Below, in pieces: positions 1-18,221 of a stretch of 64,000 nt of DNA. Position 1 is the first letter of the stretch; every line of letters begins with the position of its first letter. The DNA lies in NCBI GenBank assembly GCA_964454905.1, contig CAYVTR010000002.1, positions 6,803 to 70,802 on the forward strand, read 5' to 3'. The notes under the pieces are model-generated. The model made no database searches. It saw only the letters and a list, made by a program, of their open reading frames with translations, and was not told the DNA's origin. Both the position numbers and the translations under genes were made by a program. This DNA comes from an uncultured Woeseia sp. (GTDB lineage: Bacteria; Pseudomonadota; Gammaproteobacteria; Steroidobacterales; UBA11654).

Positions 1-714
1 TTGATCCAGATTAGCAACAATATTGCCATGAGAGAGCATAACGCCTTTAGATAACCCAGTTGTTGCTCCGGTGTATTGTAAAAAAGCTAAATCATCAATT
101 GAAATTGCCGTTTCATTAAAATCAGCGCTCGGCCTTTTGAGCATGGAGGTAAAACGTAAAGTATTAGAGATGTTGTATCTTGGAACTAATCGTTTGACAT
201 ATTTCATGACAAAATTCATAAATCTGCCTTTGATGGCTCCCTGATAGTCACCGATTTTAGTAATAATTACATGTTCAATTGTGACATTGTCTAAAACGGG
301 TTGAAGAACATGAGCAGAATTTTCGAAAATAACAATAGCTTTTGCACCCGAATCTCTTAACTGATGTTCCAGTTCTCTCGGCGTATAGAGTGGATTAACA
401 TTGACAACAATCAAGCCAGCTCTTAAGGCGCCAAATATTGCCACTGGGTATTGAAGAAGGTTAGGCATCATCATCGCAATTCTATCGCCTTTTCTCAAAC
501 CAAGAACATTCTGCAAATAAGCAGCAAAACTTTTGGAATCTTTAGCGACTTGTTCATATTTCATTGAAACGCCAAAATTAACAAATGCTTCATACGAAGC
601 ATAATCAGTCTCTGCTTGATCCAAAAGTTTAACCAGCGTGCCTCTGGGGTCAAACACTAACTCTTCCGAAGCACCTTCCGGATAATTTTCTAACCAAGGT
701 TTCTTTCTATTCAT
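1..714 (-). CDS. fadD: long-chain-fatty-acid--CoA ligase (AMP-forming), N-terminal 238 codons; the rest lies outside the window
   Basis: The ORF is open to the window edge, with its ATG at 714..712. My translation MNRKKPWLENYPEG...MMPNLLQYPVAIFGALRAGLIVVNVNPLYTPRELEHQL...LAFLQYTGATTGLSKGVMLSHGN is collinear with the E. coli FadD N-terminus and includes the AMP-binding motif. It is absent from the ORF track because it has no stop inside the window. Confidence 0.85.
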   Translation of the reverse strand, partial: MNRKKPWLENYPEGASEELVFDPRGTLVKLLDQAETDYASYEAFVNFGVSMKYEQVAKDSKSFAAYLQNVLGLRKGDRIAMMMPNLLQYPVAIFGALRAGLIVVNVNPLYTPRELEHQLRDSGAKAIVIFENSAHVLQPVLDNVTIEHVIITKIGDYQGAIKGRFMNFVMKYVKRLVPRYNISNTLRFTSMLKRPSADFNETAISIDDLAFLQYTGATTGLSKGVMLSHGNIVANLDQ

Positions 715-830
715 AATCTTCAATGAAATTTTATTATCATTAATCTAACTCAGGGCGATCAATTTTTCACGTTATTAGTTGCATCAAGATGATCAAAAGT
801 TCATTATTTGCTCCTTAGTGGTTAAATGAA

Positions 831-3089
831 ATGGATAAATCTAGATTTCCAAATTTTTATCAAATGCCTATCAAAGAACGAATCGAAGCGGTCTTTGAGA
901 GAGGGCTAATTACTGAAGACGATTACCAGGCATTAAAAAATCAGCAGCAGCAACTAGATATAGATACTGCTGATAAAATGATAGAAAATGTCATTGGCGT
1001 TTTAGGGATACCAATTGGTCTGGGCTTAAATTTTTCTATCAATAAGAAAGACTATATTGTCCCCCTTGCTGTAGAAGAACCTTCAATCGTCGCTGCATTA
1101 AGTTCTGCTGCAAAAATAGCAAGAACAGGTGGCGGTTTTCAAGCAACAAGCACCGACCCCATTCTTACAGGACAAATCCAAGTGGTTAATATTCAAAACA
1201 TAGAACAAGCCAGAAACAATTTGTTATCTCGACAAGAAGAAATACTCAATCTTGCTAATAGTTTTCACCCAAGAATGGTTGCCAGAGGTGGGGGAGCAAT
1301 TAGTTTTAATATAAAAACCTACCCTATGGAATCATTTGATGGTGAGATGCTCATTATTGATTTACATGTCAACACCATGGATGCCATGGGTGCAAATCTA
1401 GTGAATAGCATGTGTGAAGGTGTGTCTTCATTAATTGAAACCATTACCGAAGGTGAGGTGTTTCTCAGAATTTTATCAAATTTAACAGATCAGTCACTTG
1501 CTTCTGCATCAGTAAAAATTCCACTTCAATCCTTAGCGATTGATGGCTATCAAGGTGAGCGAGTAAGAGACGGGATTATCATTGCATCTGATTTTGCACA
1601 CGCAGACCCTTACAGAGCATCCACACATAATAAAGGCATAATGAATGGCATTGATGCATTAGCACTCGCCACGGGTAATGATTGGAGAGCAATCGAAGCC
1701 GGCGCGCATGCATACGCAGCCCGATTAGGCCGATACTCAGCCCTATCGAAGTGGTCAATTGATAATGATGGAGATTTAGTTGGGCACATTGAATTACCTA
1801 TAAAAGTAGGCATTGTTGGAGCTCTAATTGAGTCTAATCCTGCGGTTGCTTTAAATTTAAGAATTCTCAATATCGAATCAGCTACTGAATTGTCTAGTGT
1901 AATGGCGGCTGTGGGCTTAGCACAAAATTTTTCCGCCCTAAAAGCATTGGCAACCGATGGCATACAAAAAGGCCATATGACATTGCATGCAAGATCAGTT
2001 GTAAAAGCAGCTAATACCCCTCATGACCTTTTTGATCAAGTGCTGGAAAAAATTATCTTGAGTGGAGAAATTAAAGTATGGAAGGCTAGAGAAATATTAG
2101 AAAAGTTGCAACATGTACCCCCTAAAGTACCTGCAAAGAAATCAGTTAAACAATCAGTATCTGATTCAATAGAAGGCATTGGACATGGGAAAGTGATTCT
2201 TCTAGGCGAACACTCTGTAGTGTATAACCGACATGCAATTGCTGTTCCAGCACCATTGAATATAAGGGTCAAAATTGAAGACATCAAAGATCAAATCCTC
2301 TTACTTATACCCTCTTGGGGAGTGGAGTATCAATTGGATAAAAACCCTGATAAAAGACAGTCGTTCGAGAAACCAGCAGGTCTTATTTTGGATAAACTTG
2401 GCCTAAATGATCGAGGAATGAAGATAGAAGTCTTTGCTGACATCCCAAGAGGTATGGGTCTTGGTGGGTCTGCTGCCATAGCTGTTGCAATTATTAAAGC
2501 ATTAAACAACCATTTTGATTTAAGGCTTAAGAATGAAGAAATTAATCAAATGGCCTTTGAGTCAGAAAAGATTGCCCATGGAAATCCCAGTGGAATCGAT
2601 AACACCATAGCTACCTTTGGCTTTCCCCTTATATACAGAACTGGAGAAAAACCATTGGTTGAACCTTTGAATATCAATGATCCGTTTTCTTTGGTAGTAG
2701 GCTTCTCAAAAAAAGAAGGTTTGACTGCAACAACAGTAAATAAAGTTAGAGGACTTTGGAAGAGAAACACTAATCTTTTTGAAAAGATTTTTGATGAAAT
2801 TGATGCTTTAGTCATTCAATCAATTCAGGCCATTCAAAATAATGATTTTGAGTTACTTGGTCAGTTAATGAATCTTAATCATGGTTTATTAAATACCCTT
2901 CAAGTCTCAACACCAGAGCTTGAACGACTGGTTATGATTGCTAGAGAGTCTGGTGCATTAGGAGCAAAATTAACTGGTGGTGGTGGTGGCGGAGCAATGA
3001 TTGCATTATGCGACAATGTGACCGAAACTCAAGACGCAATAAAATCAGAAGGGCTTGAAACCCTGACATTCGACATCACGAATTCATGA
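831..3089 (+). CDS. bifunctional class II HMG-CoA reductase / mevalonate kinase (single fused ORF)
   Basis: The N-terminal ~430 aa carry class II HMGR motifs (ENVIGVLGIP, EEPSIVAA, DAMGANLVN, HNKGIMNGIDA). The C-terminal ~300 aa carry GHMP mevalonate kinase motifs (GKVILLGEHSVVY, GMGLGGSAAIAVA, KLTGGGGGGAMIAL). A Pro/Lys/Ser-rich linker joins the two halves. Confidence 0.85.
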   Translation: MDKSRFPNFYQMPIKERIEAVFERGLITEDDYQALKNQQQQLDIDTADKMIENVIGVLGIPIGLGLNFSINKKDYIVPLAVEEPSIVAALSSAAKIARTGGGFQATSTDPILTGQIQVVNIQNIEQARNNLLSRQEEILNLANSFHPRMVARGGGAISFNIKTYPMESFDGEMLIIDLHVNTMDAMGANLVNSMCEGVSSLIETITEGEVFLRILSNLTDQSLASASVKIPLQSLAIDGYQGERVRDGIIIASDFAHADPYRASTHNKGIMNGIDALALATGNDWRAIEAGAHAYAARLGRYSALSKWSIDNDGDLVGHIELPIKVGIVGALIESNPAVALNLRILNIESATELSSVMAAVGLAQNFSALKALATDGIQKGHMTLHARSVVKAANTPHDLFDQVLEKIILSGEIKVWKAREILEKLQHVPPKVPAKKSVKQSVSDSIEGIGHGKVILLGEHSVVYNRHAIAVPAPLNIRVKIEDIKDQILLLIPSWGVEYQLDKNPDKRQSFEKPAGLILDKLGLNDRGMKIEVFADIPRGMGLGGSAAIAVAIIKALNNHFDLRLKNEEINQMAFESEKIAHGNPSGIDNTIATFGFPLIYRTGEKPLVEPLNINDPFSLVVGFSKKEGLTATTVNKVRGLWKRNTNLFEKIFDEIDALVIQSIQAIQNNDFELLGQLMNLNHGLLNTLQVSTPELERLVMIARESGALGAKLTGGGGGGAMIALCDNVTETQDAIKSEGLETLTFDITNS

Positions 3090-3664
3090 CCACAGACAAT
3101 CTACCGTCCGACAACCAAGAAGATATGCTAATACTGGTTGATTCGTCTGACAATGAAATAGGGTTTCTTTCTAAATCAGAGTGTCATATGGGTTCAGGAC
3201 GATTACATCGAGCCTTTTCAGTCTTTATTTTTAACAGTTCAGGAGAAGTTCTTATTCAAAAACGGAGTTCTCACAAAGAACTTTGGGGACTTCACTGGTC
3301 CAATAGCTGTTGCAGTCATCCTAGAAAAAACGAAAACATTGAGAGTGCGGTTAACAGACGCTTAGCAGAAGAATTAACGATTCAATGCCCCGTTCACTTT
3401 CTATACAAATTCACCTATCAAGAACATTTTGAGAACGTCGGAAGTGAGAATGAACTTTGTTATGTTTATGTGGGACTTTTCGATGGTGAAATCAAAGAAA
3501 ATCCCAATGAAGTTGCTGAGTATAAATTTATAAGTCCTAAAAAACTTGATCAAGAGATACAGGCTACCCCTGATAACTTCACACCATGGATGAAAATGGA
3601 GTGGAGCACTATCTTGGACAATTATAAGAGTGATATTGAAAATAAAATTGCTTTAAGGCTTTAG
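3086..3664 (+). CDS. idi: isopentenyl-diphosphate delta-isomerase, type 1 (Nudix)
   Basis: LHRAFSVFIFNSSGEVLIQKRSSHKELWGLHWSNSCCSHP aligns with the E. coli Idi core. The start overlaps the upstream stop (ATGA). Confidence 0.85.
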   Translation: MTTDNLPSDNQEDMLILVDSSDNEIGFLSKSECHMGSGRLHRAFSVFIFNSSGEVLIQKRSSHKELWGLHWSNSCCSHPRKNENIESAVNRRLAEELTIQCPVHFLYKFTYQEHFENVGSENELCYVYVGLFDGEIKENPNEVAEYKFISPKKLDQEIQATPDNFTPWMKMEWSTILDNYKSDIENKIALRL

Positions 3665-3668
3665 ATCA

Positions 3669-5426
3669 TCAGAACTGATCTTCTGTTAAAGTCATGGTCG
3701 AGACTGACCCTGACATTAATGATTTCGAATACGCCTCCACAAGCGGTAAAGATTGCTCGATAAAAAAAGTGGATGAAACAAGTTTTGCCTCATAGAATTC
3801 TACATCTTCAGAGTTTTTAAGATTCTTTATAGCCAATGCTGCTGAACGAGTTGCTATCCATCCCCCGATAAAAGTGCCCATCATCATCAAAAAATTATAA
3901 CTTGCTGAACCCGCTAAGAAAGGATCCTTGGGTTGTTCTTGCAAAATATAATTAAGGGACTTTTCAACCACAGCAATTGAATGAGTCATCGATTCTTTAA
4001 TTAACCGAAGACGTTGCTTATTAGAATCTAGAGCGTTAATCTCTGAGGAAATATCAGCAATCAATTCTCTCAATTCTTGGCCTTGATCTCCAATGACCTT
4101 TCGACCAATCAGATCATTAGCTTGAATGCCAGTGGTGCCTTCATAAATTGAGGTAATTCTGGAATCTCTAAAATGTTGTGCAGCACCGGTTTCTTCTATA
4201 TAACCCATGCCTCCATGTATTTGTAATCCAATGGAGGTGATCTCTTGACAAATTTCACTACACCAGCCTTTTGTTATCGGGGTTAACAAATCAGCCCTTT
4301 TAGAATGCTCTTGGTCGGAGACAGCTAAATCAATTTCTAATGTAGTGACATACACAAACACTCGCATGATTTCTATGTGTGATCTCATCTTTAATAACAT
4401 TCGCCTGACATCAGGATGATGAATAATCGTTGTTCGCCCTTTTTGGCCATGAGCTTCACCTTGAACCCTGTCTTTAGCATAAGTGAGCGCTTGCTGATAG
4501 GCTCGTTCTGCAATAGCCACGCTTTCACAAGCCACCCCAAGTCTTGCATCGTTCATCATCGTAAACATACAAGAGAGACCTTGATTCACTTCACCAACCA
4601 AATAACCTGTTGCACCCTCAAAATTCATAACACAGGTTGCACAACCATGAATGCCAAGCTTATGTTCTATAGACACTGCTTCAAGAGAATTTCTTTCGCC
4701 TAAACTTCTGTCCTCATTCACCAAATACTTAGGCACTAAGAACAAGGAAATACCTTTCACCCCTTCAGGTGCATCAGGCAACCGAGCAAGAACCATGTGG
4801 ATTATGTTCTCAGACAAATCATGCTCACCCCAAGTGATAAATATTTTCTGTCCCGTGATCTTGTAATGGTCACCATTTGGAACAGCGCTGGTGTTTAGTG
4901 CTGAGAGATCAGAACCAGCCTGGGGTTCAGTTAAAACCATGGTTCCTGAATACTCTCCTGCTATGAGTTTCTTTAAAAATAGGTCCTTTAACGATGGCTC
5001 AGCATGAGCTCCAACCGCTCGAACCACTGAATTTGTTAGCAACACTAAATGAGCCCATGAAAAATTGGCTGCCATAACCATTTCATTAACTGGCATGGAC
5101 ACTAAACTCGGTAAGCCTTGCCCTCCAAATTCTGGGTTACAACTTAAAGTGGGCCAACCTCCAGAAACATAAGCCTCATAGGCTTCTTTGTAACCTCTAG
5201 GAACACTAACCTGTCCTTTCTCTAATGAAACACCTATTCGATCCCCATCAACATTTGTTGGCGCTATAACTTCAGATGCAATTTCTGCTGCACTATTGTA
5301 TATGGATGCTAGAAATTCCTTGTTAATCTCTTGATCAAACCCTTCTATATTTTTTAACTGCTCAAGACCGATAAACTGATCCAATGCAAATAGCATATCT
5401 TTGATAGGTGGTTCAAAATGGCTCAT
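3669..5426 (-). CDS. dmdC: large (585 aa) acyl-CoA dehydrogenase of the DmdC type; candidate 3-methylmercaptopropionyl-CoA dehydrogenase
   Basis: Family hallmarks are TEPQAGSDLSAL and GQKIFITWGEHDLSENIIHMVLARLPDAPEGVKGISLFLVPK, plus a long C-terminal extension. The gene starts 1 nt after the dmdA stop. The substrate assignment rests on context only. Confidence 0.65.
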   Translation of the reverse strand: MSHFEPPIKDMLFALDQFIGLEQLKNIEGFDQEINKEFLASIYNSAAEIASEVIAPTNVDGDRIGVSLEKGQVSVPRGYKEAYEAYVSGGWPTLSCNPEFGGQGLPSLVSMPVNEMVMAANFSWAHLVLLTNSVVRAVGAHAEPSLKDLFLKKLIAGEYSGTMVLTEPQAGSDLSALNTSAVPNGDHYKITGQKIFITWGEHDLSENIIHMVLARLPDAPEGVKGISLFLVPKYLVNEDRSLGERNSLEAVSIEHKLGIHGCATCVMNFEGATGYLVGEVNQGLSCMFTMMNDARLGVACESVAIAERAYQQALTYAKDRVQGEAHGQKGRTTIIHHPDVRRMLLKMRSHIEIMRVFVYVTTLEIDLAVSDQEHSKRADLLTPITKGWCSEICQEITSIGLQIHGGMGYIEETGAAQHFRDSRITSIYEGTTGIQANDLIGRKVIGDQGQELRELIADISSEINALDSNKQRLRLIKESMTHSIAVVEKSLNYILQEQPKDPFLAGSASYNFLMMMGTFIGGWIATRSAALAIKNLKNSEDVEFYEAKLVSSTFFIEQSLPLVEAYSKSLMSGSVSTMTLTEDQF

Positions 5427-5427
5427 T

Positions 5428-6552
5428 TTAAGCTCTTTGAAACCATGGAAGATCCACTACAGTGGCTGTTAATTCTTGTTCAGGAGAAGAGATAATTATT
5501 TCACTGCCACTCCTAGCATGTGCAATATCAACAATTATGTAACATATGTTCTTATTTAGTCTTGGTGAATATACTAATGCATGCATAGAGCCAACTTTTT
5601 TATTATCAATTAAAACAGGCCAATGCTCATCGTTAAAAACTGTGATAGGTTTACCTTCTATTTCTGCCCCTATTAGTTTCTTTGCTGGTCCTCGAAGATG
5701 AATCTCCCTAAGTGCCTCTTTGCCAATAAAATCATCTCTTTGATCAAGATCAACCGTCCAGTCTAAGCCAACTTCATAGGGGTTATTTGTTCTGTCCATA
5801 TCTGCCAAATAACTGAGTATTCCGGCTTCAAGCCTGAGTATTATATTTGGTGTGCCTGCACTAATATTTAAATCTTGTCCTGCTTGCCAAAGTATTTCCC
5901 ATAATTCATCACCTTTAGAATGATCTCTAAGAAAGATTTCATAGCACCTTTCCCTACTGTAGCCCATTCTAGCAATAACCATTGGGATGCCTTCATAAGT
6001 TAGTTCCCTGAATTTATAAAAACTCAATTCGCTAACCCAATCACCAAAAACTTCAGACATTAATTTTGTCGAATTGGGTCCTTGAACTTGTAACGGTGAC
6101 ACATCAGGCTCAGTAATTTCGACGTCATAATTATATCCTGCTGCAATACCCTGGGTCCATAATAGAGAATCTCCATCAGCTAAAGAAAACCAATAATGAT
6201 CTTCATCAATTTTTAACATAACCGGGTCGTTAATAAATCCTCCCCTGAAATCTAGAAAAGGAGCATACATCGCCTGGCCTTTAGAACATTTCTTGATGTC
6301 CCTAGGTGTTAAAAATTGGGACAGCGACTCAGCATCAGGACCCTTAATTTCAACTTGACGCTCACAAGCTACATCCCAAAGCTGAACCCCATTAACTAAG
6401 TTGTTGTAATCCTCCAATGTCCCCTTAAAACTGATGGGCATATACATGTGGTTGTAAACCGAAAAAGCGTCCGCACCATATTTCATGGTTGAATCAAAAT
6501 ACGGTGATTTCCTTACTCGAGGACTAAAAACTATTTTCGATGTTTTGTACAT
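5428..6552 (-). CDS. dmdA: GcvT-family aminomethyltransferase; dimethylsulfoniopropionate (DMSP) demethylase-like
   Basis: SPRVRKSPYF...SVYNHMYMP...EDYNNLVNGVQLWDVACERQVEIKGPDA...TPRD...YAPFLDFRGGFINDPVMLK...EPDVSPLQVQGP matches the DmdA pattern as I recall it. I chose the start at Met20 of the track ORF (MYKTSK), which gives 374 aa. Confidence 0.7.
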   Translation of the reverse strand: MYKTSKIVFSPRVRKSPYFDSTMKYGADAFSVYNHMYMPISFKGTLEDYNNLVNGVQLWDVACERQVEIKGPDAESLSQFLTPRDIKKCSKGQAMYAPFLDFRGGFINDPVMLKIDEDHYWFSLADGDSLLWTQGIAAGYNYDVEITEPDVSPLQVQGPNSTKLMSEVFGDWVSELSFYKFRELTYEGIPMVIARMGYSRERCYEIFLRDHSKGDELWEILWQAGQDLNISAGTPNIILRLEAGILSYLADMDRTNNPYEVGLDWTVDLDQRDDFIGKEALREIHLRGPAKKLIGAEIEGKPITVFNDEHWPVLIDNKKVGSMHALVYSPRLNKNICYIIVDIAHARSGSEIIISSPEQELTATVVDLPWFQRA

Positions 6553-6721
6553 AATAAAGTGCAGATAATAATACTGAATAATACATAAGATTTCGAATCT
6601 GATCGGCAATAAATAGGGCTGGACTATTGATCTCCTTTTTATCTAGACTGTAGATGCTTTAAAATCATTAGGAAAAAAAGTTCTAAAAAATAAAGACAAT
6701 ATCGACTGGACAAATTTTATA

Positions 6722-8230
6722 TTGACTGTGCTGGTAACCCTTTCAATATTAATACCTATGTTTGTTGCGCCCATGGCGACGAATCAATTACTCAATCAGG
6801 CCTATGAAATTGTTGCAAGCAATTTAGGTGCGGTCTATTTAGGAATGGGACTGTTGACACTACTGTTTCTGTTAACCCTAGCAATGAGTCGTTTCGGTAA
6901 TATCAAATTGGGTAAAAAAGATGAAGCACCTGAGTACGGAATCTTTGGTTGGTCCTCGATGTTGTTTTGTTGTGGTATAGGTGCTTCTTTGGTTTTATAT
7001 GGGACCACTGAATGGGTGGACTACTATCTAAAACCTCCCTTTGGAGCTGAACCAAAATCTAGTGAAGCGATCGCTTGGGCATCAACCTATGGAATGTTTC
7101 ATTGGGGCATTATTGGTTGGTCTATATATTGTCTTCCAGCGGTAGCCATTGGCTATAGTTATCACACCAGAAACTCAGGTAGTTTAAAAACGAGCACGGG
7201 TTGTGAAGCAATCTTAGGGAATCAAGGAAGCGGCAACCTAGCTAGATTAATAGATCTCGTTTACATGGTTGCACTTGTGGGAGTCTTGGGAGCCGGACTA
7301 GGTCTTACCTCTCCAGTAGTCAGTGCGACTATAACTGAATTCTTTTCAATCGAGCAAAATCTAATCATCACTGTTTCATGCCTCTTGGTTTGTATAGTTA
7401 TCTATTCAATCAGCCTTTATTTTGGTTTGGAAGAAGGCATTCAACGGCTCAGTAAATTCTGTGCCTATATGGCCTTTTTTGTATTGATATACATCTTAAT
7501 ATTTGGACCCACTCTCTTCTTAATAAAAAACTCTTATGAGAGTTTAGTTTTTATGGCCAAAAATTTTATCAGTATGAGTCTTGGTCCGCCACCAATAGGC
7601 AAGTCTGAGTTCTCAAAAGCATGGACAATATTTATGTGGGCATGGTTCTTTGGGTTGGGGCCATTTGTTGGCATCTTTATCGCAAGAATCTCTAGAGGCA
7701 GAACCATTCGTACAATGATACTTGGAACTCTAGGGTACGGAACAATGGGATGCTCATTATTTTTTATGATCATGGGCAATAATGCTATTTATCTTGAAAC
7801 CAATGGAATCATGCCTATCGTCGAGATTTGGAGCAATGAAAGTCCAGCCGTTATGGTCTCTCAAAGTATTTCTGGAATGGTCTTGGGTAAATGGATACTT
7901 CCTTTTGTGGGTGTTTTTTGTCTTGTCTTTATGGCCACAACTTTTGACTCAGGGGCTTATACACTAGCTTCATCGATCACTAAAAAAATGAGAGCTGGAG
8001 AAAATCCAGAAATCTGGAATAGAATATTCTGGGCATTCTTCATTGCCCTACTGCCACTAGCGCTACTAATAGGAGCTGCCGACTCTCCTGAATTACAAGG
8101 AATTGATAAATTAAGACCCTTTCAAACAATTGTGCTTTTAATCTCACCACCGCTGCTGATTGTGTATATAATCATGGCGATTGGATTAATGAAAAGTATT
8201 TTTGAAGACACAAAAACAGAGGATTTATGA
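6722..8230 (+). CDS. BCCT-family (betaine/carnitine/choline) transporter; candidate DMSP/betaine importer
   Basis: It has about 12 hydrophobic segments and the BCCT signature WTIFMWAWFFGLGPFVGIFIARISRGRTIR, plus RFGNIKLG. The start is TTG as given in the track and is uncertain. Confidence 0.85.
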   Translation: MTVLVTLSILIPMFVAPMATNQLLNQAYEIVASNLGAVYLGMGLLTLLFLLTLAMSRFGNIKLGKKDEAPEYGIFGWSSMLFCCGIGASLVLYGTTEWVDYYLKPPFGAEPKSSEAIAWASTYGMFHWGIIGWSIYCLPAVAIGYSYHTRNSGSLKTSTGCEAILGNQGSGNLARLIDLVYMVALVGVLGAGLGLTSPVVSATITEFFSIEQNLIITVSCLLVCIVIYSISLYFGLEEGIQRLSKFCAYMAFFVLIYILIFGPTLFLIKNSYESLVFMAKNFISMSLGPPPIGKSEFSKAWTIFMWAWFFGLGPFVGIFIARISRGRTIRTMILGTLGYGTMGCSLFFMIMGNNAIYLETNGIMPIVEIWSNESPAVMVSQSISGMVLGKWILPFVGVFCLVFMATTFDSGAYTLASSITKKMRAGENPEIWNRIFWAFFIALLPLALLIGAADSPELQGIDKLRPFQTIVLLISPPLLIVYIIMAIGLMKSIFEDTKTEDL

Positions 8231-9135
8231 TTACTAACATAAAAACCCTAGAACAAACTTTACAAGCTAATGAGTTTGCTATTACTGCAGAAATCCCGGC
8301 ACCCATTAGTGCCTCAGCTGCAGAGATGGAAGAAAAAATTGATTTATTAGCAGGTCATGTTCATGCCATCAATGTCACTGATAACCCTGGCGCAACTGCG
8401 CATATGTCAAGCCTTGCTGGTTGCAGCATTGTACGAAATAAAGGGATTGATCCTATTTTTCAGGTGACCTGTAGAGATCGAAACAGGTTAGCTATACAAA
8501 GTGATCTCATGGGAGCATCAGCTCTTGGTGTCAACAATGTTTTAACGTTGGCAGGTGATCCAGTAAAAAATGGGGATCACCCAGATGCAAAGGCTGTTTT
8601 TGATATCAACTCTAAAAAGATTTTATCAATAATGCAGTCAATGAATGATCTTGGCGAAACCATGTCAGGACGAGAACTACAAACCAAATCAAATTTTTTT
8701 CCAGGCGGTGCAGCCATTATCCATGAACCAGAAAATAATTGGAATCCAGTAACTCTCAAAGACAAAGTCGATCATGGGGCTAAATTTATACAAACTCAGT
8801 TTTGTTATGACGTTGATTTACTCAGAGAGTATATGAAACATATTGTTGATTCAGGTTTATCAGAAAAACTTTTCTTTATTATAGGCATCGGGCCTTTGAG
8901 AAGTGATAAATCAGCAAAATGGATGAGAGATAGGCTATTTGGAACCGTCATACCAGAAAGCATTGTTCAAAGGATGGAGCAGTCAGAAAATCAAATTGAG
9001 GAAGGCGTTGCTATTTGTGCTGAACTTATTAATCAATTTGAAGAAATTGATGGAGTCCATGGTGCCCACCTCATGGCCCCTAGAAATCTTTCTGCAATTG
9101 CACCAACTGTCAAACAGGCAGGGATAAAGATATAA
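8227..9135 (+). CDS. methylenetetrahydrofolate reductase, non-canonical (acetogen/actinobacterial-like MetF, COG0685)
   Basis: NVTDNPGATAHMSSLAGCSIV...FQVTCRDRNRLAIQSDLMGASALGVNNVLTLAGDPVKNGDHPDAKAVFDI is typical of this MetF subtype. The ATG overlaps the BCCT stop (ATGA). Confidence 0.75.
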   Translation: MITNIKTLEQTLQANEFAITAEIPAPISASAAEMEEKIDLLAGHVHAINVTDNPGATAHMSSLAGCSIVRNKGIDPIFQVTCRDRNRLAIQSDLMGASALGVNNVLTLAGDPVKNGDHPDAKAVFDINSKKILSIMQSMNDLGETMSGRELQTKSNFFPGGAAIIHEPENNWNPVTLKDKVDHGAKFIQTQFCYDVDLLREYMKHIVDSGLSEKLFFIIGIGPLRSDKSAKWMRDRLFGTVIPESIVQRMEQSENQIEEGVAICAELINQFEEIDGVHGAHLMAPRNLSAIAPTVKQAGIKI

Positions 9136-9142
9136 TTAGATT

Positions 9143-10435
9143 TTAAGATTTACTGTCCAAGAAATCTTTTAACCTATAAAACAGCATTCCTAATGACATT
9201 GCTGGACCAGAAAACCATTTACCGCCTGGTAATTGAATATGTTTCACACGAGACAATGTATCAATCATATCCCATTCATTACTTATCGCTGAAGCAATAA
9301 TCTTGGCTGCCATATGAGTGGGCCCTACTCCATGACCAGAATAGCCTTGAGAGTAAAAAATGTTCTCGGTTAGCCGCCCTAATTGGGGAATCCGATGAAT
9401 GGTAACGGCAACATTGCCAGCCCAAGCATAATCTATCCTTACATCATTAAGATCAGGAAATACATTTAACATCCGCTTTCTCAAATTTTGATCAATATTT
9501 TTAGGCTCAGCACCAGAATAATTCCATCGTCCCCCAAAAAGAAGCCTGTGATCGGGCGAAAGCCGATAGTAGTCCAAGATAGTATTTAAATCACAAACGG
9601 CCATATCACCAGAGATAAGTTGCTTTGCCCTCTCATTGCCTAAAGGTTCTGTGGCAATAATGCAGCTGTTTGCTGGCATAATCATCCGTCTTAGTTTTGG
9701 GTTTAATGTTCCAATATAGGCATTACCAGCTAACACTAGATGCTCAGTCTTTATAGACCCGTGTTCAGTTTCTATTAAAACCTCACTCCCTGGATTAATC
9801 TTTAATGCTTTTGTTTGCTCATAAATCGATACCCCAAGATCAGCTGCTGCCTTGGCTTCGCCCAAACATAGATTTAAAGGATGGAGATGACCACTTCCTG
9901 AATCAATCATACCTCCAATATAATTTGAAGAACCAACATAATTTTTTATTTGATTCTTGTCTACAAGAGTTAAATTATGCTGATAACCTCTTCGCTCCCA
10001 CTCCTCTTTTCTTATAATTAACTCATCCATTTGGGAATTATTTAGGGCTACCTCTATGAAGCCTTCCTTCAAATCGCATTGTATTCCAAATTCTTCTATG
10101 GTCTGCCTAACCAGATCAGTGCAATCTGCCCCCAGTTTCCAAACAGATTGAGCAATGTCGTCACCCCAACTTTCAAATTTATCACTAAAAGTAAAGCCAG
10201 AAATTAATTGTCCTCCATTCCGTCCACTTGCACCCCAACCTATTCTTGCAGCATCAATCAAAACCACCTCATATCCTTTTTTTGCAAGATTTATTGCTGT
10301 ATTCACTCCTGTAAACCCACCGCCGACAATACAAACTTCAGAGGAAATATTTTCTTTTAGTTCAGGGTAATTTTTAGAGTTATTTATAGTAGCTGCATAG
10401 TAAGAAGGAACATGCTCTATTTTTATGTTTTCCAT
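9143..10435 (-). CDS. FAD-dependent oxidoreductase, gamma-glutamylputrescine oxidase (PuuB)-like
   Basis: The N-terminus SYYAATINN...VCIVGGGFTGVNTAINLAKKGYEVVLIDAARIGWGASGRNGGQL resembles E. coli PuuB and shows a DAO-family dinucleotide fold. Confidence 0.75.
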   Translation of the reverse strand: MENIKIEHVPSYYAATINNSKNYPELKENISSEVCIVGGGFTGVNTAINLAKKGYEVVLIDAARIGWGASGRNGGQLISGFTFSDKFESWGDDIAQSVWKLGADCTDLVRQTIEEFGIQCDLKEGFIEVALNNSQMDELIIRKEEWERRGYQHNLTLVDKNQIKNYVGSSNYIGGMIDSGSGHLHPLNLCLGEAKAAADLGVSIYEQTKALKINPGSEVLIETEHGSIKTEHLVLAGNAYIGTLNPKLRRMIMPANSCIIATEPLGNERAKQLISGDMAVCDLNTILDYYRLSPDHRLLFGGRWNYSGAEPKNIDQNLRKRMLNVFPDLNDVRIDYAWAGNVAVTIHRIPQLGRLTENIFYSQGYSGHGVGPTHMAAKIIASAISNEWDMIDTLSRVKHIQLPGGKWFSGPAMSLGMLFYRLKDFLDSKS

Positions 10436-10519
10436 TTGTTATATTTTTTTAAATGATAATTTTTTTGCTTTAATAAACAGTGTAATATTGATTTATTGAT
10501 CAATTAAGGATTGTACATA

Positions 10520-12064
10520 ATGGCCAGAAGAAGAACCAGAAGAAGTCAACAGACCCCTATTGACAATGAAGTCATTAAACCTGTTGTAGAAAAAGGAATG
10601 ATTGGTGGAAAGTTTAAGCCATTATCCGATCATGATATAGAACAAATTCATCAAACAACTTTGGATGTTTTAGAAAACATTGGGATGTCAAACCCCCTGC
10701 CCCAATTAAAGGAAATAGCACTTAAAAATGGGTGTACGTTTACGGACCAAGGTCGCCTTCTCTTTCCAAGATCATTGGTAGAGGACGTTATTGCTAGAGC
10801 AGGCAGAGATTTTGTTATGTATGGGAGAGACCCAAAAGATGATATAGACATGTCTGATCAAAAAGTTCATCTCTATGGTGGAGGAGAAGCGGTCACCATG
10901 CTTGACTTAGGCGCAAAAAAATACAGATCATCAACAATCAATGATGTGTACGACATTGCTAGATTGGTTGATTATCTTGAGCATGTTCATAGTTATTCCA
11001 GAGTGGTTGTGGCAACTGAGTTTAGCGACCTATTAAAAACAGATATCAACACGGCCTATGCAAGTGTTGTAGGGACAACGAAACACACTGCTTTGACTTT
11101 TGCTAGTGGGGAACACGTGAAACCAACAATTGAAATGCTGGACATGATTGCAGGTGGTGAAGGTAGGTTCTTAAAACGACCCTTCTGTCATGGCGGGGGA
11201 TGTACGGTAGTGTCCCCTCTTCGCTATGGAACAGATAATTGCGAAGTAGCTGTAGCCTCAATCGATTTCAATGCACCAATATGGGTTGTAATTGCGCCTC
11301 AATCTGGAGCAACTGCTCCGGCAGCATTAGCGGGCTCTCTAGTGCAGGTTCTAGCAGAAACATTGGCGAGCTTATTATTGATTGATCTTATAAAACCAGG
11401 TCATCCTGTAATTTTTGGTCCATGGCCTTTTGTCACAGACCTTAGAACCGGGTCCTTTTCAGGAGGCAGCGGTGAAGAAGCTTTGATGAGTGCAGCAGCT
11501 GCCCAGATTACCAATCATTATGGTCTGGCTAGCTCTGTCGGTGCTGGCATGACAGATTCAAAAAGTCCTGATGCACAAGCAGGTTATGAAAAAGGTATAA
11601 CTGTTGTAATGGCTGCGTTAGCTGGGTGTAACAATGTTTCTGAATCTTCTGGGATGATGGCAAGCCTTATGGGTTATTCATTTGAATCTCTGGTGATTGA
11701 TAATGAAATGCTCGGGATGGTTATGAGAACAGTTAGAGGTATTGAGGTCAATGAAGAAACTCTGTCCTATAGAGCAATAAAAGACACGGTAGAGGGAGAA
11801 GGTCATTTTCTAAGGGATCCTCAAACACTTTCATTAATGAAAACTGAATATCTATATCCAACTCTCGCTGACCGCAGTACCCAAGAAGAATGGGAAGCTG
11901 AAGGTTCGCCAGATATACGACAAAGAGCTGAAAAAAGAGCTAGAGAAATCTTGAATTCACACTATCCTGTCTACATTGATGATGCCACTGACAAAAAAGT
12001 AAGGGACACATTCCCTATCGAAATTTCTAGAGACGTTATTAAGCCTACCAAAGATCGATTCTAG
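10520..12064 (+). CDS. MttB-superfamily (trimethylamine methyltransferase family) methyltransferase, non-pyrrolysine, paralog 1
   Basis: The uninterrupted ORF has no in-frame TAG. Family-typical blocks are LDVLENIGM, FPRSLVED, GGC..VSPLR, APQSGATAPAALAGSLVQ, TDSK..DAQAGYEK and HFL..PQT. I moved the start to the ATG at 10520 (MARRRTRR). Confidence 0.85.
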   Translation: MARRRTRRSQQTPIDNEVIKPVVEKGMIGGKFKPLSDHDIEQIHQTTLDVLENIGMSNPLPQLKEIALKNGCTFTDQGRLLFPRSLVEDVIARAGRDFVMYGRDPKDDIDMSDQKVHLYGGGEAVTMLDLGAKKYRSSTINDVYDIARLVDYLEHVHSYSRVVVATEFSDLLKTDINTAYASVVGTTKHTALTFASGEHVKPTIEMLDMIAGGEGRFLKRPFCHGGGCTVVSPLRYGTDNCEVAVASIDFNAPIWVVIAPQSGATAPAALAGSLVQVLAETLASLLLIDLIKPGHPVIFGPWPFVTDLRTGSFSGGSGEEALMSAAAAQITNHYGLASSVGAGMTDSKSPDAQAGYEKGITVVMAALAGCNNVSESSGMMASLMGYSFESLVIDNEMLGMVMRTVRGIEVNEETLSYRAIKDTVEGEGHFLRDPQTLSLMKTEYLYPTLADRSTQEEWEAEGSPDIRQRAEKRAREILNSHYPVYIDDATDKKVRDTFPIEISRDVIKPTKDRF

Positions 12065-12069
12065 AGTTC

Positions 12070-13629
12070 ATGTCAGCTCAAAAGCGAAGAAGTGGTGGCA
12101 GCAAAGCTAGAAGGGCAATTCGCCAAGGTAAAGCAAAGAAAGCGGTTGTTCACCCTGGGCTTGAAACCGGTAACTACAAACCATTGAGTGAGCATGATAT
12201 TAAAAAAATACATGCTACGGCACTAGACGTTCTAGAAAATATTGGCATTAGTGATCCTATACCAGGAATTCTTAATCACACACTTGATAAAGGATGCATC
12301 CTAGGTGATGACAACCGACTAAAATTTCCTAGATCTTTAGTTGAAGATCTTTTAGATATTGCTCCTAAAGACCATCTTATGTATGCCATAAACCCCAAAT
12401 ATGATTATATGGTGTCTGGAAACAAAACTTACTTATCCACATCCGGTGAGCCAATTTCCATATTTGAATATGAATCTCAATCATTTCGTCCTACAACATT
12501 GGTGGATATTTATGATGCTGCAAGGCTTTGCGATCAATTAGAACATATTCATCAGTATGGACAACCCTTTGCAATAACAGAATATAGCCAAGACAAATTT
12601 ACTCATGATATTAATGCTGCTTATGCTGCTTTAGCTGGAACACAGAAAGGGATAGGGCTTGCTGTGGATAATGTTGAACATATTGATCCTCTAATTAATC
12701 TCTTCGACACTTTTCTTGGAGGAGAAGGAGAATATATAAAACGACCTTTCGCTGAAATTGGGGGATGCCCAATAGTTTCTCCTCTAAGGTTTGGAAAAGA
12801 TAATGCTGAAGTCATGGTTAAGTTGGCTGAGATGGGCCTTTACATTGGTGTCTGTACAGCTCCTCAGACCGGTACTACAGCGCCTGCTTCTTTGGCAGGG
12901 AGTCTCGTTCAATCATTTGCCGAAACCCTTGCCTGTCTTTGTGTGGTCAACCTCATTAAACCAGGGTCATATTGTGATTTTGAAATGTGGCCATTTATAT
13001 CTGATCTTAGAACAGGCGCGTTCACCGGTGGTAGTGGTGAGCAAGCCTTAATCATGGCAGCAACAGCTCAAATGTGTAATTTTTATGGGCTAGTTTCTAG
13101 CGTTGCATGCGGGATGACGGACTCAAAAACAATGGATGCACAAGCCGGCTACGAAAAAGCAATAACAACCACAGCCGCAATGCTTGCTGGAGGAAACATT
13201 GTTTCATCATATGCTGGAGCAGTTGGAAGCATAATGGGATGGTCATTTGAGGGAGCGATTATTGACAATGATATGTCTGGAAATATACAAAGGTTAGTGA
13301 AAGGCATTGAGGTTAATGATGAAACATTATCCTATGATGTTATCAATGACGTTGTCTATGGAGATGGACACTATCTCAAACATCCTCAAACAATTAACCT
13401 AATGGAGTCTGAATTTTTATACCCTAATTTAGCAAATAGACAAACCACACAAGAATGGGAAGAATCTGGAAAGCAAACCATTTATGACGCTGCACATCTA
13501 AGGTTAAAACAAATGATGAAGAATTATTATCCAGAATATATAAATAAAAAAATTGATGACAAAATAAGATCTGAATTTCCAATTCGACTAGAAAAAGAAA
13601 GGATGAAACCAAATCTTGACTGGAAATAG
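12070..13629 (+). CDS. MttB-superfamily methyltransferase, non-pyrrolysine, paralog 2
   Basis: It shares the same conserved blocks as paralog 1 and is about half identical to it by eye. It starts 5 nt after paralog 1 ends. Confidence 0.85.
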   Translation: MSAQKRRSGGSKARRAIRQGKAKKAVVHPGLETGNYKPLSEHDIKKIHATALDVLENIGISDPIPGILNHTLDKGCILGDDNRLKFPRSLVEDLLDIAPKDHLMYAINPKYDYMVSGNKTYLSTSGEPISIFEYESQSFRPTTLVDIYDAARLCDQLEHIHQYGQPFAITEYSQDKFTHDINAAYAALAGTQKGIGLAVDNVEHIDPLINLFDTFLGGEGEYIKRPFAEIGGCPIVSPLRFGKDNAEVMVKLAEMGLYIGVCTAPQTGTTAPASLAGSLVQSFAETLACLCVVNLIKPGSYCDFEMWPFISDLRTGAFTGGSGEQALIMAATAQMCNFYGLVSSVACGMTDSKTMDAQAGYEKAITTTAAMLAGGNIVSSYAGAVGSIMGWSFEGAIIDNDMSGNIQRLVKGIEVNDETLSYDVINDVVYGDGHYLKHPQTINLMESEFLYPNLANRQTTQEWEESGKQTIYDAAHLRLKQMMKNYYPEYINKKIDDKIRSEFPIRLEKERMKPNLDWK

Positions 13630-13724: not shown

Positions 13725-13760
13725 AAAACCTGTTTAGCAAAAGCTATCAGGTTTTTTTTT
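13725..13760 (+). terminator. intrinsic terminator or attenuator hairpin between mttB paralog 2 and metF
   Basis: AAAACCTG-TT-TAGC-AAAA-GCTA-T-CAGGTTTT forms an extended hairpin that runs into a T9 tract. The hairpin ends 14 nt before the metF ATG. Confidence 0.55.
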
Positions 13761-13773
13761 GGAAAAAGATTTT

Positions 13774-14619
13774 ATGATTAAGGACATTTCATTTGAGTTC
13801 TTTCCTCCAAGAACAGAGAAAATGGAGCAGAACCTAAAGCAAAACATAGGAAAGTTAATGGAACTATCTCCTAAATTTGTATCTATTACCTATGGTGCAG
13901 GAGGGACCACTCGAGATAAAACTCATAAAATCATCTCTAAGTTAATAAGTGAAACCGATCTCAATGTTGCTGCCCATTTAACCTGTGTCAATTCAAGTAT
14001 AAATGAAATTGATGAGGTTATAGAAAGCTACACCTCCATAGGGGTTAAACACATTGTTGCTCTTAGAGGTGATATGAAAGATTTAGGTCCATTTACCCCT
14101 CATCCTAAAGGTTTAAATAGTTCAATTGAGCTAGTCAGACATATTAAAGGCAAAAGCAACATAAAAGTTTCTATTAGCGGTTATCCTGAGCCACATCCAG
14201 AATCCCAAGGAATTTCGACAGATATTAACTTTATTAAATCTAAAATTGATGCTGGGGCTGATCAAATAATTACTCAATTTTCCTTTCAAGCTGAAAATTA
14301 TATTAAATATAGAGATACATTAGTTAACCAAGGCATTAATATACCGATTATTCCTGGGATTATGCTTATTAAGAGCTTTAAAGGAATAAAGAATATGAGT
14401 AATAAAGTTGGCATAAATGTACCAAATTGGGTTGATAAAACCATTGAAAGAGAAACAGAAGAAACTCAAAAAGTAATAGCTGAGGATTTTGCTAGAACCC
14501 AATCATCTGTATTAGAAAGCAATGGATTTGAGCAACTTCACTTTTATACCTTAAATGAATCTAAGATTATGAAAAACATTGCTAAACACCTAGGCTTTTA
14601 TAAAAAAAGTACTATATAA
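13774..14619 (+). CDS. metF: 5,10-methylenetetrahydrofolate reductase, canonical E. coli-type
   Basis: SFEFFPPRTEKMEQNL, SITYGAGGTTRDKTH, AAHLTCV, ALRGD and ITQF are classic MetF blocks. I chose the ATG at 13774 rather than the TTG at 13759. Confidence 0.85.
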   Translation: MIKDISFEFFPPRTEKMEQNLKQNIGKLMELSPKFVSITYGAGGTTRDKTHKIISKLISETDLNVAAHLTCVNSSINEIDEVIESYTSIGVKHIVALRGDMKDLGPFTPHPKGLNSSIELVRHIKGKSNIKVSISGYPEPHPESQGISTDINFIKSKIDAGADQIITQFSFQAENYIKYRDTLVNQGINIPIIPGIMLIKSFKGIKNMSNKVGINVPNWVDKTIERETEETQKVIAEDFARTQSSVLESNGFEQLHFYTLNESKIMKNIAKHLGFYKKSTI

Positions 14620-14635
14620 ATAAAAAAGAATAATC

Positions 14636-15679: not shown

Positions 15680-15743
15680 ATGACTTTTGTAGCTAAAACG
15701 CTTGACCTGAAGTACTATATATTCGAAAAATTGGAGTTAGATA

Positions 15744-16430: not shown

Positions 16431-16432
16431 TA

Positions 16433-17023: not shown

Positions 17024-17322
17024 TGGGTAAAATGATTACAATTTATTGGAGAGATATTCCTTCACACGTGATCTATAAGCTCGGCAGAGAAAAATATAAA
17101 AAACAGCTTAACCCTAAATTCGAGACCGCTATTGATAGAGCCGCAATGAGAGCGGGTAAAGGCTCGAGTGATGCCTATATGTCAGAATGGCGGAGAGAAA
17201 CAGTTGCCATGCAAGGAAACCCTCAAGAGTTGGTAGATAACCTAGTGAATGAATTAGAAAATCAATTTACTGATGAGGTTCTTGAAAAAACGATTAAGGC
17301 CAAAGGAATAAAACCAAAATAG
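17023..17322 (+). CDS. small conserved protein (99 aa), possibly of the 'virulence factor' domain family seen beside split-MetH genes
   Basis: It is coupled to DUF1638 through a TAATG overlap. The family assignment is from memory only. Confidence 0.4.
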   Translation: MGKMITIYWRDIPSHVIYKLGREKYKKQLNPKFETAIDRAAMRAGKGSSDAYMSEWRRETVAMQGNPQELVDNLVNELENQFTDEVLEKTIKAKGIKPK

Positions 17323-17331
17323 GATTACATT

Positions 17332-18210: not shown

Positions 18211-18221
18211 CTTCATATCCT

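Follow-up and report, generated by a model that had tools for sequence, protein, structure and literature searches.

The genome of an uncultured Woeseia sp. carries one open reading frame in which a class II HMG-CoA reductase (HMGR) is joined in frame to a mevalonate kinase (MVK). Its stop codon overlaps the start of idi, a gene for type 1 isopentenyl-diphosphate isomerase (IDI; Table 1). The stretch analysed, here called the window, comprises 64,000 nucleotides. Comparison of sequences identifies the fusion as a real, common and under-annotated domain architecture. We consider it highly probable that this one polypeptide holds two independently folded and competent enzymes of the mevalonate pathway working in the biosynthetic direction, that it belongs to a widespread fusion family with a single origin and that it forms an operon with idi. 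The N-terminal reductase would convert HMG-CoA to mevalonate and the C-terminal kinase would convert mevalonate to mevalonate 5-phosphate, the two being joined by a flexible linker of ∼ 20 residues. Fusion and idi would be transcribed together, and the ATGA overlap probably couples their translation, so that the three activities would be made in a fixed ratio. The role we propose is the supply of IPP and DMAPP, not mevalonate catabolism, despite the 'degradative' label carried in databases.

Table 1. Features at the start of the window (positions in nucleotides of the window; residues are those of the encoded protein).
Feature	Position	Strand	Basis
FadD-like acyl-CoA ligase (AMP-binding) gene, divergent, runs off the window	1–714	-	L081
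Intergenic region, 116 bp, presumed promoter region, between the divergent FadD-like gene and the fusion	715–830	.	gene positions in L081
Bifunctional class II HMG-CoA reductase / mevalonate kinase ORF, stop codon included	831–3089	+	ORF list, Pfam, NCBIfam
HMG-CoA reductase domain, class II, residues 1–427	831–2111	+	TIGR00532, 1qax alignment, Foldseek
Interdomain linker, residues 428–450, Pro/Lys/Ser-rich	2112–2180	+	pLDDT, alignment of 44 fused proteins
Mevalonate kinase domain, GHMP family, residues 451–752	2181–3086	+	TIGR00549, PDB relatives
idi, type 1 isopentenyl-diphosphate isomerase, 192 aa	3086–3664	+	NF002995, TIGR02150

The ORF listing of the window gives the fusion as a single uninterrupted frame of 752 amino acids, in which Pfam places HMG-CoA_red at residues 14–387 (E = 5e-106), GHMP_kinases_N at 518–595 and GHMP_kinases_C at 665–734. 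An earlier note on this DNA had claimed an in-frame fusion with both halves complete, a Pro/Lys/Ser-rich linker at about nt 2115–2180 and an overlap between the fusion stop and the idi start. The ORF together with the Pfam and NCBIfam matches bears out the first claim, the linker was recovered with slightly wider limits, and the overlap is present in the sequence and recurs in relatives. Within nt 3080–3091 (gaattcATGAcc) the idi ATG (3086–3088) overlaps the fusion TGA (3087–3089), giving ATGA at 3086–3089. A stop/start overlap of 4, 8 or 11 nt is possible at 21 of 31 related loci, and idi lies downstream of the fusion in 32 of 43 fused loci. The idi product scores above the cut-offs of NF002995 (169.4 bits, cut-off 127) and TIGR02150 (144.3 bits, cut-off 105.8). 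Its translation contains the motifs NSCCSHP and ENELC, which we take to be the equivalents of Cys67/His69 and Glu114/Glu116 of E. coli Idi.

By profile, catalytic residues and fold the N-terminal half is a class II HMGR, and reductase activity is predicted. It matches TIGR00532 with 403.6 bits over residues 1–387 (cut-off 259.95) and PF00368 with 355 bits, as against only 47.7 bits with TIGR00533, the model for class I (cut-off 441.8). Residues 4–423 align to residues 5–422 of Pseudomonas mevalonii HMGR (PDB 1qax; E = 1e-113, ∼ 46–49% identity), onto which the AlphaFold model superposes with a Foldseek TM-score of 0.90 (normalised by target) and an rmsd of ∼ 3 Å. Other solved or known class II enzymes named as comparators are those of Delftia, Burkholderia and Streptococcus pneumoniae. 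E83, K268, D284 and H382 align with the catalytic Glu83, Lys267, Asp283 and His381 of the P. mevalonii enzyme. E83, DAMGAN (184–189), K268, D284 and H382/H386 are kept in all 44 fused sequences, except that D184 is Asn in one; the C-terminal flap, with His382/His386, lies inside the domain as delimited here. The position of P. mevalonii Asp146 is occupied by His in 42 of the 44 fused sequences, the window protein included, and by Gln in two; position 148 is Lys or Arg in 30 of the 44 and Arg152 is invariant. Asp146, which corresponds to D154 in R. pomeroyi (PMC12292504), is the NADH determinant of the P. mevalonii enzyme. NADPH, or both cofactors, may be used by the fused enzymes.

The C-terminal half matches the mevalonate kinase model TIGR00549 with 252 bits (cut-off 163, residues 452–726), while the NCBIfam models for phosphomevalonate kinase (PMK), galactokinase, homoserine kinase, IspE and diphosphomevalonate decarboxylase (MDD) all score far under their cut-offs on it. 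GHMP motifs I, II and III are found as GKVILLGEH (453–461), GLGGSAA (543–549) and KLTGGGGGG (713–721), with D590 as the catalytic Asp. K454, E460, S547, D590 and the whole of motif III are kept wherever a fused sequence extends over the position (42–44 of 44; truncated sequences have gaps towards the C-terminus). Relatives in the PDB are the MVKs of Leishmania major (2hfs, E = 2.5e-42) and Methanosarcina mazei, with TM-scores of 0.80–0.86; mevalonate phosphorylation is the predicted activity. The linker sequence HVPPKVPAKKSVKQSVSDSIE spans residues 428–448 of the linker segment, and pLDDT values below 50 at residues 429–445 predict that it is disordered. Among the 44 fused proteins the linker varies from ∼ 3 to 40 residues and has no sequence conservation, and the frame is always kept.

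In the AlphaFold prediction (pTM 0.51) both domains are folded and the linker is disordered; the domains show neither a confident contact nor a fixed packing against each other, and the model offers no support for a physical tunnel between them. Compared with an 81%-identical homologue, dN/dS is 0.033 for the HMGR half, 0.056 for the MVK half and 0.24 for the linker, which is 43% identical between the two proteins; these ratios are rough, as dS is saturated (∼ 2.8). Judged by this comparison, purifying selection acts strongly on each half.

In most members of the family the fusion is the third gene of an operon MDD-PMK-(HMGR::MVK)-IDI, with FPP synthase (FPPS) and HMG-CoA synthase (HMGS) alongside. 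As a rule it is embedded in a full mevalonate cluster (FPPS, (SQS), MDD, PMK, fusion, IDI, HMGS), and MDD and a PMK-like gene stand directly upstream in 34 of 43 fused loci. For Wenzhouxiangella, a carrier of the fusion, both the mevalonate pathway and a squalene synthase have been reported (PMC7691419). HMGR, MVK and IDI are the pathway members present in the window. As the earlier note had stated for HMGS, PMK and MDD, none of these was found there, nor were thiolase and FPPS, in a Pfam search of all its 53 ORFs with a length of 150 aa or more; in tblastn of the window with 34 MDD, 34 PMK, 14 FPPS and 2 HMGS queries, idi and the MVK half itself were the only matches. The missing mevalonate genes are likewise absent from 10 kb upstream and ∼ 7 kb past the window end, and no other mevalonate or MEP gene lies within about 81–84 kb of contiguous sequence. 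The arrangement MaoC-ECH-FadD-like(-)-fusion-idi is conserved in two relatives (L002 and L003, 51% and 62% G+C); since it is common to relatives of very different G+C, this detached arrangement of fusion and idi is old. Base composition is not anomalous. On contig L081, which encodes the identical protein, the AMP-binding gene occupies 8223–9884 (-) and the fusion starts at 10001. At 710–737 (+) the window has a weak sigma-70-like match; in the promoter and terminator scan, sites were no more frequent than in shuffled sequence. The window contains no tRNA or rRNA gene.

We assume that the window lineage has a complete mevalonate pathway. In this lineage and its nearest relatives fusion and idi have become separated from MDD, PMK and HMGS, which would be encoded elsewhere in the genome. 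Alternatively, the pathway could be partial or relict: IPP would come from the MEP route, PMK, MDD and HMGS would be lacking, and the pair would be a leftover or serve another purpose, such as supplying mevalonate 5-phosphate to some other process or taking HMG-CoA from leucine-type acyl-CoA catabolism next door. The solitary position of the pair in 81–84 kb and the persistence of its detached arrangement in both relatives speak for this reading, as does a search that took as query the MDD of a marine relative with low G+C: the best 120 homologues did not include the MDD of the window lineage, which is weak negative evidence. Candidates among these homologues were chosen by amino-acid composition and a neighbour-joining (NJ) tree, and seven were inspected. 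Six were rejected as belonging to canonical clusters of other lineages. The seventh (L099, 56% G+C) belongs to a split cluster, FPPS-SQS-MDD with neither PMK nor fusion after it, and cannot be tied to the window; it does show that split clusters exist. The contigs of P0364 and P0099 are equally long (41,559 bp) by chance and do not represent one contig. Strong purifying selection on both halves between sub-lineages that are 81% identical, with the catalytic residues intact, would be unexpected for a relic. We know of no use for mevalonate 5-phosphate without PMK or a phosphomevalonate decarboxylase. The neighbouring genes are better read as genes of fatty-acid and DMSP catabolism: NCBIfam scores a FadD-like protein at 762 bits and a DmdA-like protein at 404.7 bits, both just under the cut-offs, and the third is a generic enoyl-CoA hydratase. 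The conserved synteny led us to consider whether the fusion is functionally linked to these acyl-CoA genes; this was set aside, as NCBIfam gives no leucine or HMG-CoA enzymes among them, and is kept only as a reading of low probability. Taken together, we regard a partial or relict pathway as improbable, and this abundant uncultured marine gammaproteobacterium probably makes its isoprenoids via mevalonate.

A biosynthetic role is suggested because no HMG-CoA lyase is encoded in the window and the NADH-determining Asp146 is replaced. It is, in our judgement, very improbable that the protein is instead a catabolic or salvage enzyme, with the reductase running oxidatively from mevalonate to HMG-CoA as in P. 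mevalonii, or with the kinase salvaging external mevalonate. Such a reading could appeal to the closest solved structure, which is that of the catabolic P. mevalonii enzyme, to the nearby genes for acyl-CoA catabolism (FadD-like ligase, enoyl-CoA hydratase, MaoC dehydratase and acyl-CoA dehydrogenase) and to the name 'HMG-CoA reductase, degradative' given by NCBI, UniRef and JGI. This name, however, is merely the label of TIGR00532 for class II enzymes and describes the first half of the fused proteins only. An HMGL-like domain is absent from all 53 window ORFs searched with Pfam, Asp146 is changed to His nearly throughout the family, and in relatives the fusion gene lies between PMK and IDI, with MDD, HMGS and FPPS nearby. 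Moreover, a mevalonate-consuming kinase fused to a mevalonate-oxidising enzyme makes no catabolic sense. The fusion may commit the class II reductase to the biosynthetic direction, a role with which the absence of Asp146 is consistent.

The fusion is widely distributed among Gammaproteobacteria and is found in Calditrichota, Acidobacteria, Myxococcota, Balneolaceae and Actinobacteria as well. In-frame fusions were found in 43 GTDB species representatives of several phyla, cultured isolates among them, to which the window protein is 45–62% identical over its full length. Its 90%-identity cluster has 301 members. The best 120 profile-search matches all have the same three domains and a length of ∼ 750 aa (one has 1131 aa); cultured carriers among them include Dyella, Dokdonella, Wenzhouxiangella, Litchfieldella and Cryobacterium. 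The architecture, which the earlier note had implied to be unusual, is therefore common. That note had also named a frameshift or missed stop as a source of error, and HMGR and MVK are indeed separate neighbours in some genomes: in Oceanobacillus, Virgibacillus and Paucisalibacillus the two genes occupy different frames, and in Archangium they share a frame but are divided by a stop. An assembly or sequencing artefact joining mvaA to mvk is nevertheless excluded for practical purposes by the identical protein on 17 metagenome contigs with conserved neighbours from several ENA and JGI assemblies, by the in-frame fusions of 43 other species, those of Cryobacterium coming from isolate genomes, by RefSeq fusion proteins of Dyella, Dokdonella and Wenzhouxiangella, by linkers that vary in length with the frame always kept, and by purifying selection.

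The earlier note had further allowed that the architecture might already be common and characterised. The first part stands and the second does not: literature searches for an HMGR–MVK fusion found no paper describing one and no enzyme assay for any family member, and no PDB chain covering both halves was found. A 2026 review of bacterial isoprenoid synthesis lists thiolase–HMGR (MvaE, AACT/HmgR) and IspDF as the only fusions (PMC13001223). Each enzyme alone is textbook material, whereas the family is a natural and widespread fusion of two consecutive mevalonate steps. With the 'degradative' name, automated pathway reconstructions may miss the mevalonate kinase and misjudge the direction of the pathway.

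Channelling of mevalonate is plausible, and proximity of the two active sites may be of benefit. Class II HMGR forms dimers, as does mevalonate kinase, and for this reason the fused protein could form a higher-order complex. We speculate, tentatively and as an unlikely extension of the biosynthetic reading, that such a complex passes mevalonate directly from reductase to kinase, which would make the class II reaction effectively irreversible, and that feedback inhibition of the kinase by isoprenoid phosphates is perhaps relayed to the reductase. Less likely than such a complex is that the detached pair of the window clade is fed by HMG-CoA from acyl-CoA catabolism instead of by HMGS. Further fusions, HMGR-MVK-IDI (P0122, P0124) and PMK-HMGR-MVK (P0435), suggest that the partners are tied together functionally. 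Were the complex to form, it would be a bacterial solution to flux control in the mevalonate pathway, with the triple fusions as further steps to a natural mevalonate 'metabolon'. For metabolic engineering, where artificial fusions of mevalonate enzymes have already been built, the family offers a natural scaffold on which proximity or channelling and stoichiometric expression can be tested.

Compared with known systems, the kinase half matches the mevalonate kinases of L. major (2hfs), M. mazei (4hac/6mde) and Staphylococcus aureus (2x7i) over their full length at ∼ 30–33% identity and shares GHMP motifs I–III and the catalytic Asp, but it is not free-standing, its N-terminus being tethered to HMGR. 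With the class II HMGR of P. mevalonii (1qax) the window protein shares catalytic residues, DAMGAN motif, flap domain and fold; it differs in a 325-residue C-terminal extension (linker and MVK) directly after the flap and in residues 146/148, which are His/Arg in place of the Asp/Leu of the NADH-specific enzyme. Unlike the P. mevalonii mvaAB type, the fusion has neither an adjacent HMG-CoA lyase nor Asp146. MvaE of Enterococcus faecalis (7m1z) is also a natural bifunctional mevalonate-pathway protein with a class II HMGR, but its partner is an N-terminal thiolase, so that the non-adjacent steps 1 and 3 are joined, whereas the partner here is C-terminal and catalyses the next step (3 and 4). 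Pfam finds no thiolase domain in the window protein, and its HMGR begins at residue 1.

The closest counterparts are the canonical clusters (L089, L091, L094, L098 and those of Wenzhouxiangella, Dyella, Dokdonella, Woeseiaceae, Calditrichaceae and Cryobacterium), which encode the same three-domain protein at 45–62% identity and, downstream of it, an idi whose start overlaps the fusion as in the window. They have MDD and PMK upstream and HMGS downstream of the fusion, which the neighbourhoods of the window lineage, L002 and L003 do not. In an NJ tree (no bootstrap support) 46 fused HMGR domains, the window protein inside, form one clade, whose sister is the HMGR of Bacillaceae with adjacent unfused genes. 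These mvaA-mvk pairs (Oceanobacillus, Virgibacillus; L044–L047, L049, L052) have the gene order of the fused clade (HMGR, MVK, MDD) but consist of two ORFs in different frames, and their MVK is ∼ 30–33% identical to the fused MVK half. The fusion family probably arose once, from an adjacent pair like these, and the passage from adjacent genes through a fusion to triple fusions, spread across phyla, would be a clean case of an operon becoming a fusion, together with lateral transfer of a whole pathway.

The earlier note had proposed, from the sequence alone, an in-frame fusion of HMG-CoA reductase (HMGR) to mevalonate kinase (MVK), coupled to idi; all the features it described are present in the sequence, and where it placed them, as judged by ORF, Pfam and NCBIfam analysis (see table). 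Pfam locates HMG-CoA_red at residues 14–387 of the fusion (E 5e-106), GHMP_kinases_N at 518–595 and GHMP_kinases_C at 665–734. The NCBIfam equivalogs TIGR00532 (class II HMGR; residues 1–387, 403.6 bits, cutoff 260) and TIGR00549 (mevalonate kinase; residues 452–726, 252 bits, cutoff 163) agree, and no other GHMP kinase model of NCBIfam, nor its class I reductase model, comes anywhere near its cutoff. The Pro/Lys/Ser-rich stretch marked in the note is the beginning of a linker (residues 428–450, nt 2112–2180), which ranges from ∼ 3 to 40 residues across an alignment of 44 fused sequences and is not conserved. The start of idi lies within the stop codon of the fusion (ATGA at 3086–3089); 21 of 31 loci allow a stop–start overlap of 4, 8 or 11 nt.

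Features of the window around the HMGR–MVK fusion
Feature	Position (nt)	Strand	Remarks
FadD-like acyl-CoA ligase	1–714	−	upstream, divergent from fusion; 762 bits (cutoff 884)
HMGR::MVK fusion ORF	831–3089	+	752 aa, no interruption
idi, type 1 IPP isomerase	3086–3664	+	192 aa; NF002995 169 bits (cutoff 127), TIGR02150 144 bits (cutoff 106)
DmdC-like acyl-CoA dehydrogenase, DmdA-like aminomethyltransferase, BCCT transporter	3669–8230		convergent, downstream of idi
Large catabolic island (methylated amines, glycine betaine)	after BCCT transporter gene		downstream
Two tandem MttB-family methyltransferase genes	10511–13629	+	517 and 519 aa
Corrinoid methyl-transfer module	13759–20225	+	beside MttB genes
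UbiD-family decarboxylase	58385–59836	+	

The fusion is real. Seventeen contigs (up to 167 kb, from several marine metagenome assemblies of ENA and JGI) encode the identical 752-aa protein among the same neighbours. Clustering at 90% identity puts it in a group of 301 members, and more than 100 other clusters, 74–81% identical to it, match it in length and in their three domains. Of 80 related loci on GTDB contigs (one genome per species), 43 proved on a stop-to-stop check to hold HMGR and MVK in a single in-frame ORF, Cryobacterium isolate genomes included. When 35 fused sequences were made into a profile, its best 120 matches all had the three domains and about 750 aa (one has 1131 aa); among them are proteins from Dyella, Dokdonella, Wenzhouxiangella and Litchfieldella in RefSeq/UniRef. 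A frameshift or missed stop, the first of the conditions that the note had named as fatal to its proposal, is excluded.

By every sequence and fold criterion the N-terminal half is a class II HMGR and the C-terminal half a mevalonate kinase, and both are predicted to be active. The HMGR half aligns end to end with the Pseudomonas mevalonii enzyme 1qax (residues 4–423 to 5–422, E 1e-113), and the equivalents of the catalytic residues Glu83, Lys267, Asp283 and His381 are kept in all 44 fused sequences; the Asp of the DAMGAN motif is Asn in one of them. In the MVK half, GHMP motif I (G453-K-x4-G-E-H461), motif II (GLGGSAA, 543–549), motif III (KLTGGGGGG, 713–721) and the catalytic Asp590 are kept in each of the 44 that covers these positions. 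An AlphaFold2 model (67-sequence alignment) has a mean pLDDT of 79.9, with both domains well folded and residues 429–445 below 50. In Foldseek the N-terminal half resembles class II reductases (TM 0.90), the C-terminal half the mevalonate kinases of L. major and M. mazei (TM 0.80–0.86); sequence and structure searches of the PDB found no chain spanning both halves. Since the pTM is only 0.51, the HMGR domain is not confidently placed relative to the MVK domain, and the predicted structure gives no support to a fixed interface between them. It is plausible that the fusion channels mevalonate and commits the reductase to the biosynthetic direction.

Database names for the ∼ 750-aa fused proteins at NCBI, UniRef and JGI are ‘hydroxymethylglutaryl-CoA reductase, degradative’ or ‘hydroxymethylglutaryl-CoA reductase’. 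They omit the kinase half and imply the wrong direction, ‘degradative’ being simply the label of TIGR00532. The NADH determinant of P. mevalonii HMGR is Asp146. Its counterpart in the Ruegeria enzyme, which prefers NADH, is Asp154; there D154K brought a 53.7-fold gain with NADPH (PMC12292504). In the window protein this site reads His146 and Arg148. His occupies position 146 in 42 of the 44 fused proteins, Gln in two and Asp in none; Lys or Arg stands at position 148 in 30, and Arg152 is invariant. These residues would fit a biosynthetic role, with NADPH or both cofactors in use. Pfam scans of the window's 53 ORFs of at least 150 aa found no HMG-CoA lyase; with both lyase and Asp146 absent, the fusion does not fit a catabolic mvaAB-type system.

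ORFs around the 43 fused loci were clustered to survey their neighbours. Directly upstream in 34 lie diphosphomevalonate decarboxylase (MDD; TIGR01240, 300 bits) and a GHMP kinase resembling phosphomevalonate kinase (PMK); idi is directly downstream in 32. The related contigs L089, L091/92, L094 and L098 carry the full set: FPP synthase (FPPS, minus strand), at times squalene synthase, next MDD, PMK, the fusion and IDI, with an HMG-CoA synthase of 487 aa (HMGS, minus strand) at the end. Squalene synthase, squalene-hopene cyclase and HpnH occur in the vicinity of some fused loci. The note had thus overestimated the rarity of the architecture, which is common and found mostly within a complete mevalonate cluster. 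The PMK assignment is made mainly because of operon position, the representative (from locus L023) scoring 135.5 bits against TIGR01220, under the cutoff of 165.7. This second operon gene is a divergent GHMP kinase (e.g. L042 9015–9983, L091 10975–11946), often without a precomputed Pfam match. For Wenzhouxiangella, a carrier of the fusion, the mevalonate pathway and squalene synthase have been reported, the fusion being unmentioned (PMC7691419). On the metagenomic contig L099 (JGI 3300010883, 56.5% G+C), nt 4878–8305 hold FPPS (minus strand), squalene synthase and MDD, after which an unrelated gene on the minus strand takes the place of PMK and fusion. The cluster therefore also comes in split form; no link between L099 and the window lineage could be made.

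In the window the fusion and idi stand apart from other mevalonate genes. No HMGS, PMK, MDD, thiolase, FPPS or MEP gene was found in the window, in the 10 kb upstream or in the ∼ 7 kb past its end, no isoprenoid-synthesis gene besides the pair was detected within it, and the lineage's MDD was not identified among the best 120 MDD homologues. Comparison of the window gene with that of L090 (81% identical) gives dN/dS values of 0.033 (reductase), 0.056 (kinase) and 0.24 (linker), which are rough since dS is saturated; purifying selection this strong on the kinase half speaks for the existence of a consumer of mevalonate 5-phosphate. The detachment is old and clade-wide, because the order MaoC–ECH–FadD-like(−)–fusion–idi is common to the window lineage and its closest GTDB relatives, L002 and L003 (62% identity; G+C 51% and 62%). 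The G+C of the fusion region (0.38–0.39) equals the window mean and so gives no sign of recent acquisition.

Genes of DMSP/fatty-acid catabolism flank the pair on both sides. Upstream, enoyl-CoA hydratase and MaoC dehydratase precede the FadD-like ligase (covered by nt 7008–9884 of L081, a contig with the identical fusion protein). Downstream, the DmdC-like dehydrogenase has 585 aa and the DmdA-like protein scores 404.7 bits (cutoff 410). The mechanical ORF at 5428–6609 (−) has 393 aa from a TTG start, 374 or 352 aa in gene calls on identical-fusion contigs, and is probably too long at its N-terminus. Within the first MttB gene, the Rfam pyrrolysine insertion element PYLIS_3 matches at 11549–11648 (55.5 bits, cutoff 38). 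This ORF has no in-frame stop, which makes it a non-pyrrolysine MttB homologue, and the match probably reflects coding-sequence similarity. The corrinoid module consists of MTHFR, a protein with a homocysteine S-methyltransferase domain, DUF1638, one B12-binding and one pterin-binding protein, and a RACo-like reductive activator that has a 2Fe-2S domain; it resembles a system leading from glycine betaine/methylamine to tetrahydrofolate, here in a marine gammaproteobacterium. For the UbiD-family decarboxylase, a prenylated substrate and a role in quinone synthesis are possible.

In a neighbour-joining tree of 83 HMGR domains, drawn without support values, all 46 fused sequences form one clade, sister to Bacillaceae in which mvaA adjoins an unfused mvk in a different frame. 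This suggests a single fusion event, from an adjacent gene pair, with later spread, presumably together with the operon, to Gammaproteobacteria, Calditrichota, Acidobacteria, Myxococcota, Balneolaceae, Methylomirabilota and Actinobacteria.

Longer versions also appear among predicted proteins and may be either real genes or gene-calling merges. Pfam and BLASTP against the operon's PMK and IDI assign the database-called proteins P0122 (952 aa) and P0124 (928 aa), each representing a 50%-identity cluster, as HMGR–MVK–IDI, and P0435 (1131 aa; NCBI MAG, Pseudomonadota) as PMK–HMGR–MVK. Class II HMGR is C-terminally fused to other isoprenoid enzymes in six further proteins (P0150, P0160, P0169, P0171, P0174 and P0183), the partners being polyprenyl synthase; polyprenyl synthase plus squalene/phytoene synthase (1162 and 1453 aa); squalene synthase plus an HpnA-like epimerase; an epimerase alone; and squalene-hopene-cyclase-like repeats. 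We know of no description of class II HMGR fused to polyprenyl synthase, squalene synthase, epimerase or cyclase repeats.

The window protein belongs to a large HMGR::MVK family, held in public databases under the name of its first domain only. The enzymes are known; the architecture is undescribed in the full-text literature searched, which leaves out most subscription journals, yet it is abundant in databases. A review from 2026 on the diversity of isoprenoid pathways in bacteria gives only AACT-HmgR and IspDF as fusions (PMC13001223), and Hoshino and Gaucher (PMC6107057) trimmed unrelated fused parts from their alignments and say nothing more on fusions. The family is of practical value for genome annotation and metabolic engineering. 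It differs from the catabolic mvaAB system in having neither the lyase nor Asp146. It also differs from MvaE, whose partner domain is a thiolase, absent from the window fusion, and in which the partner sits at the opposite end of the reductase and catalyses a different step.
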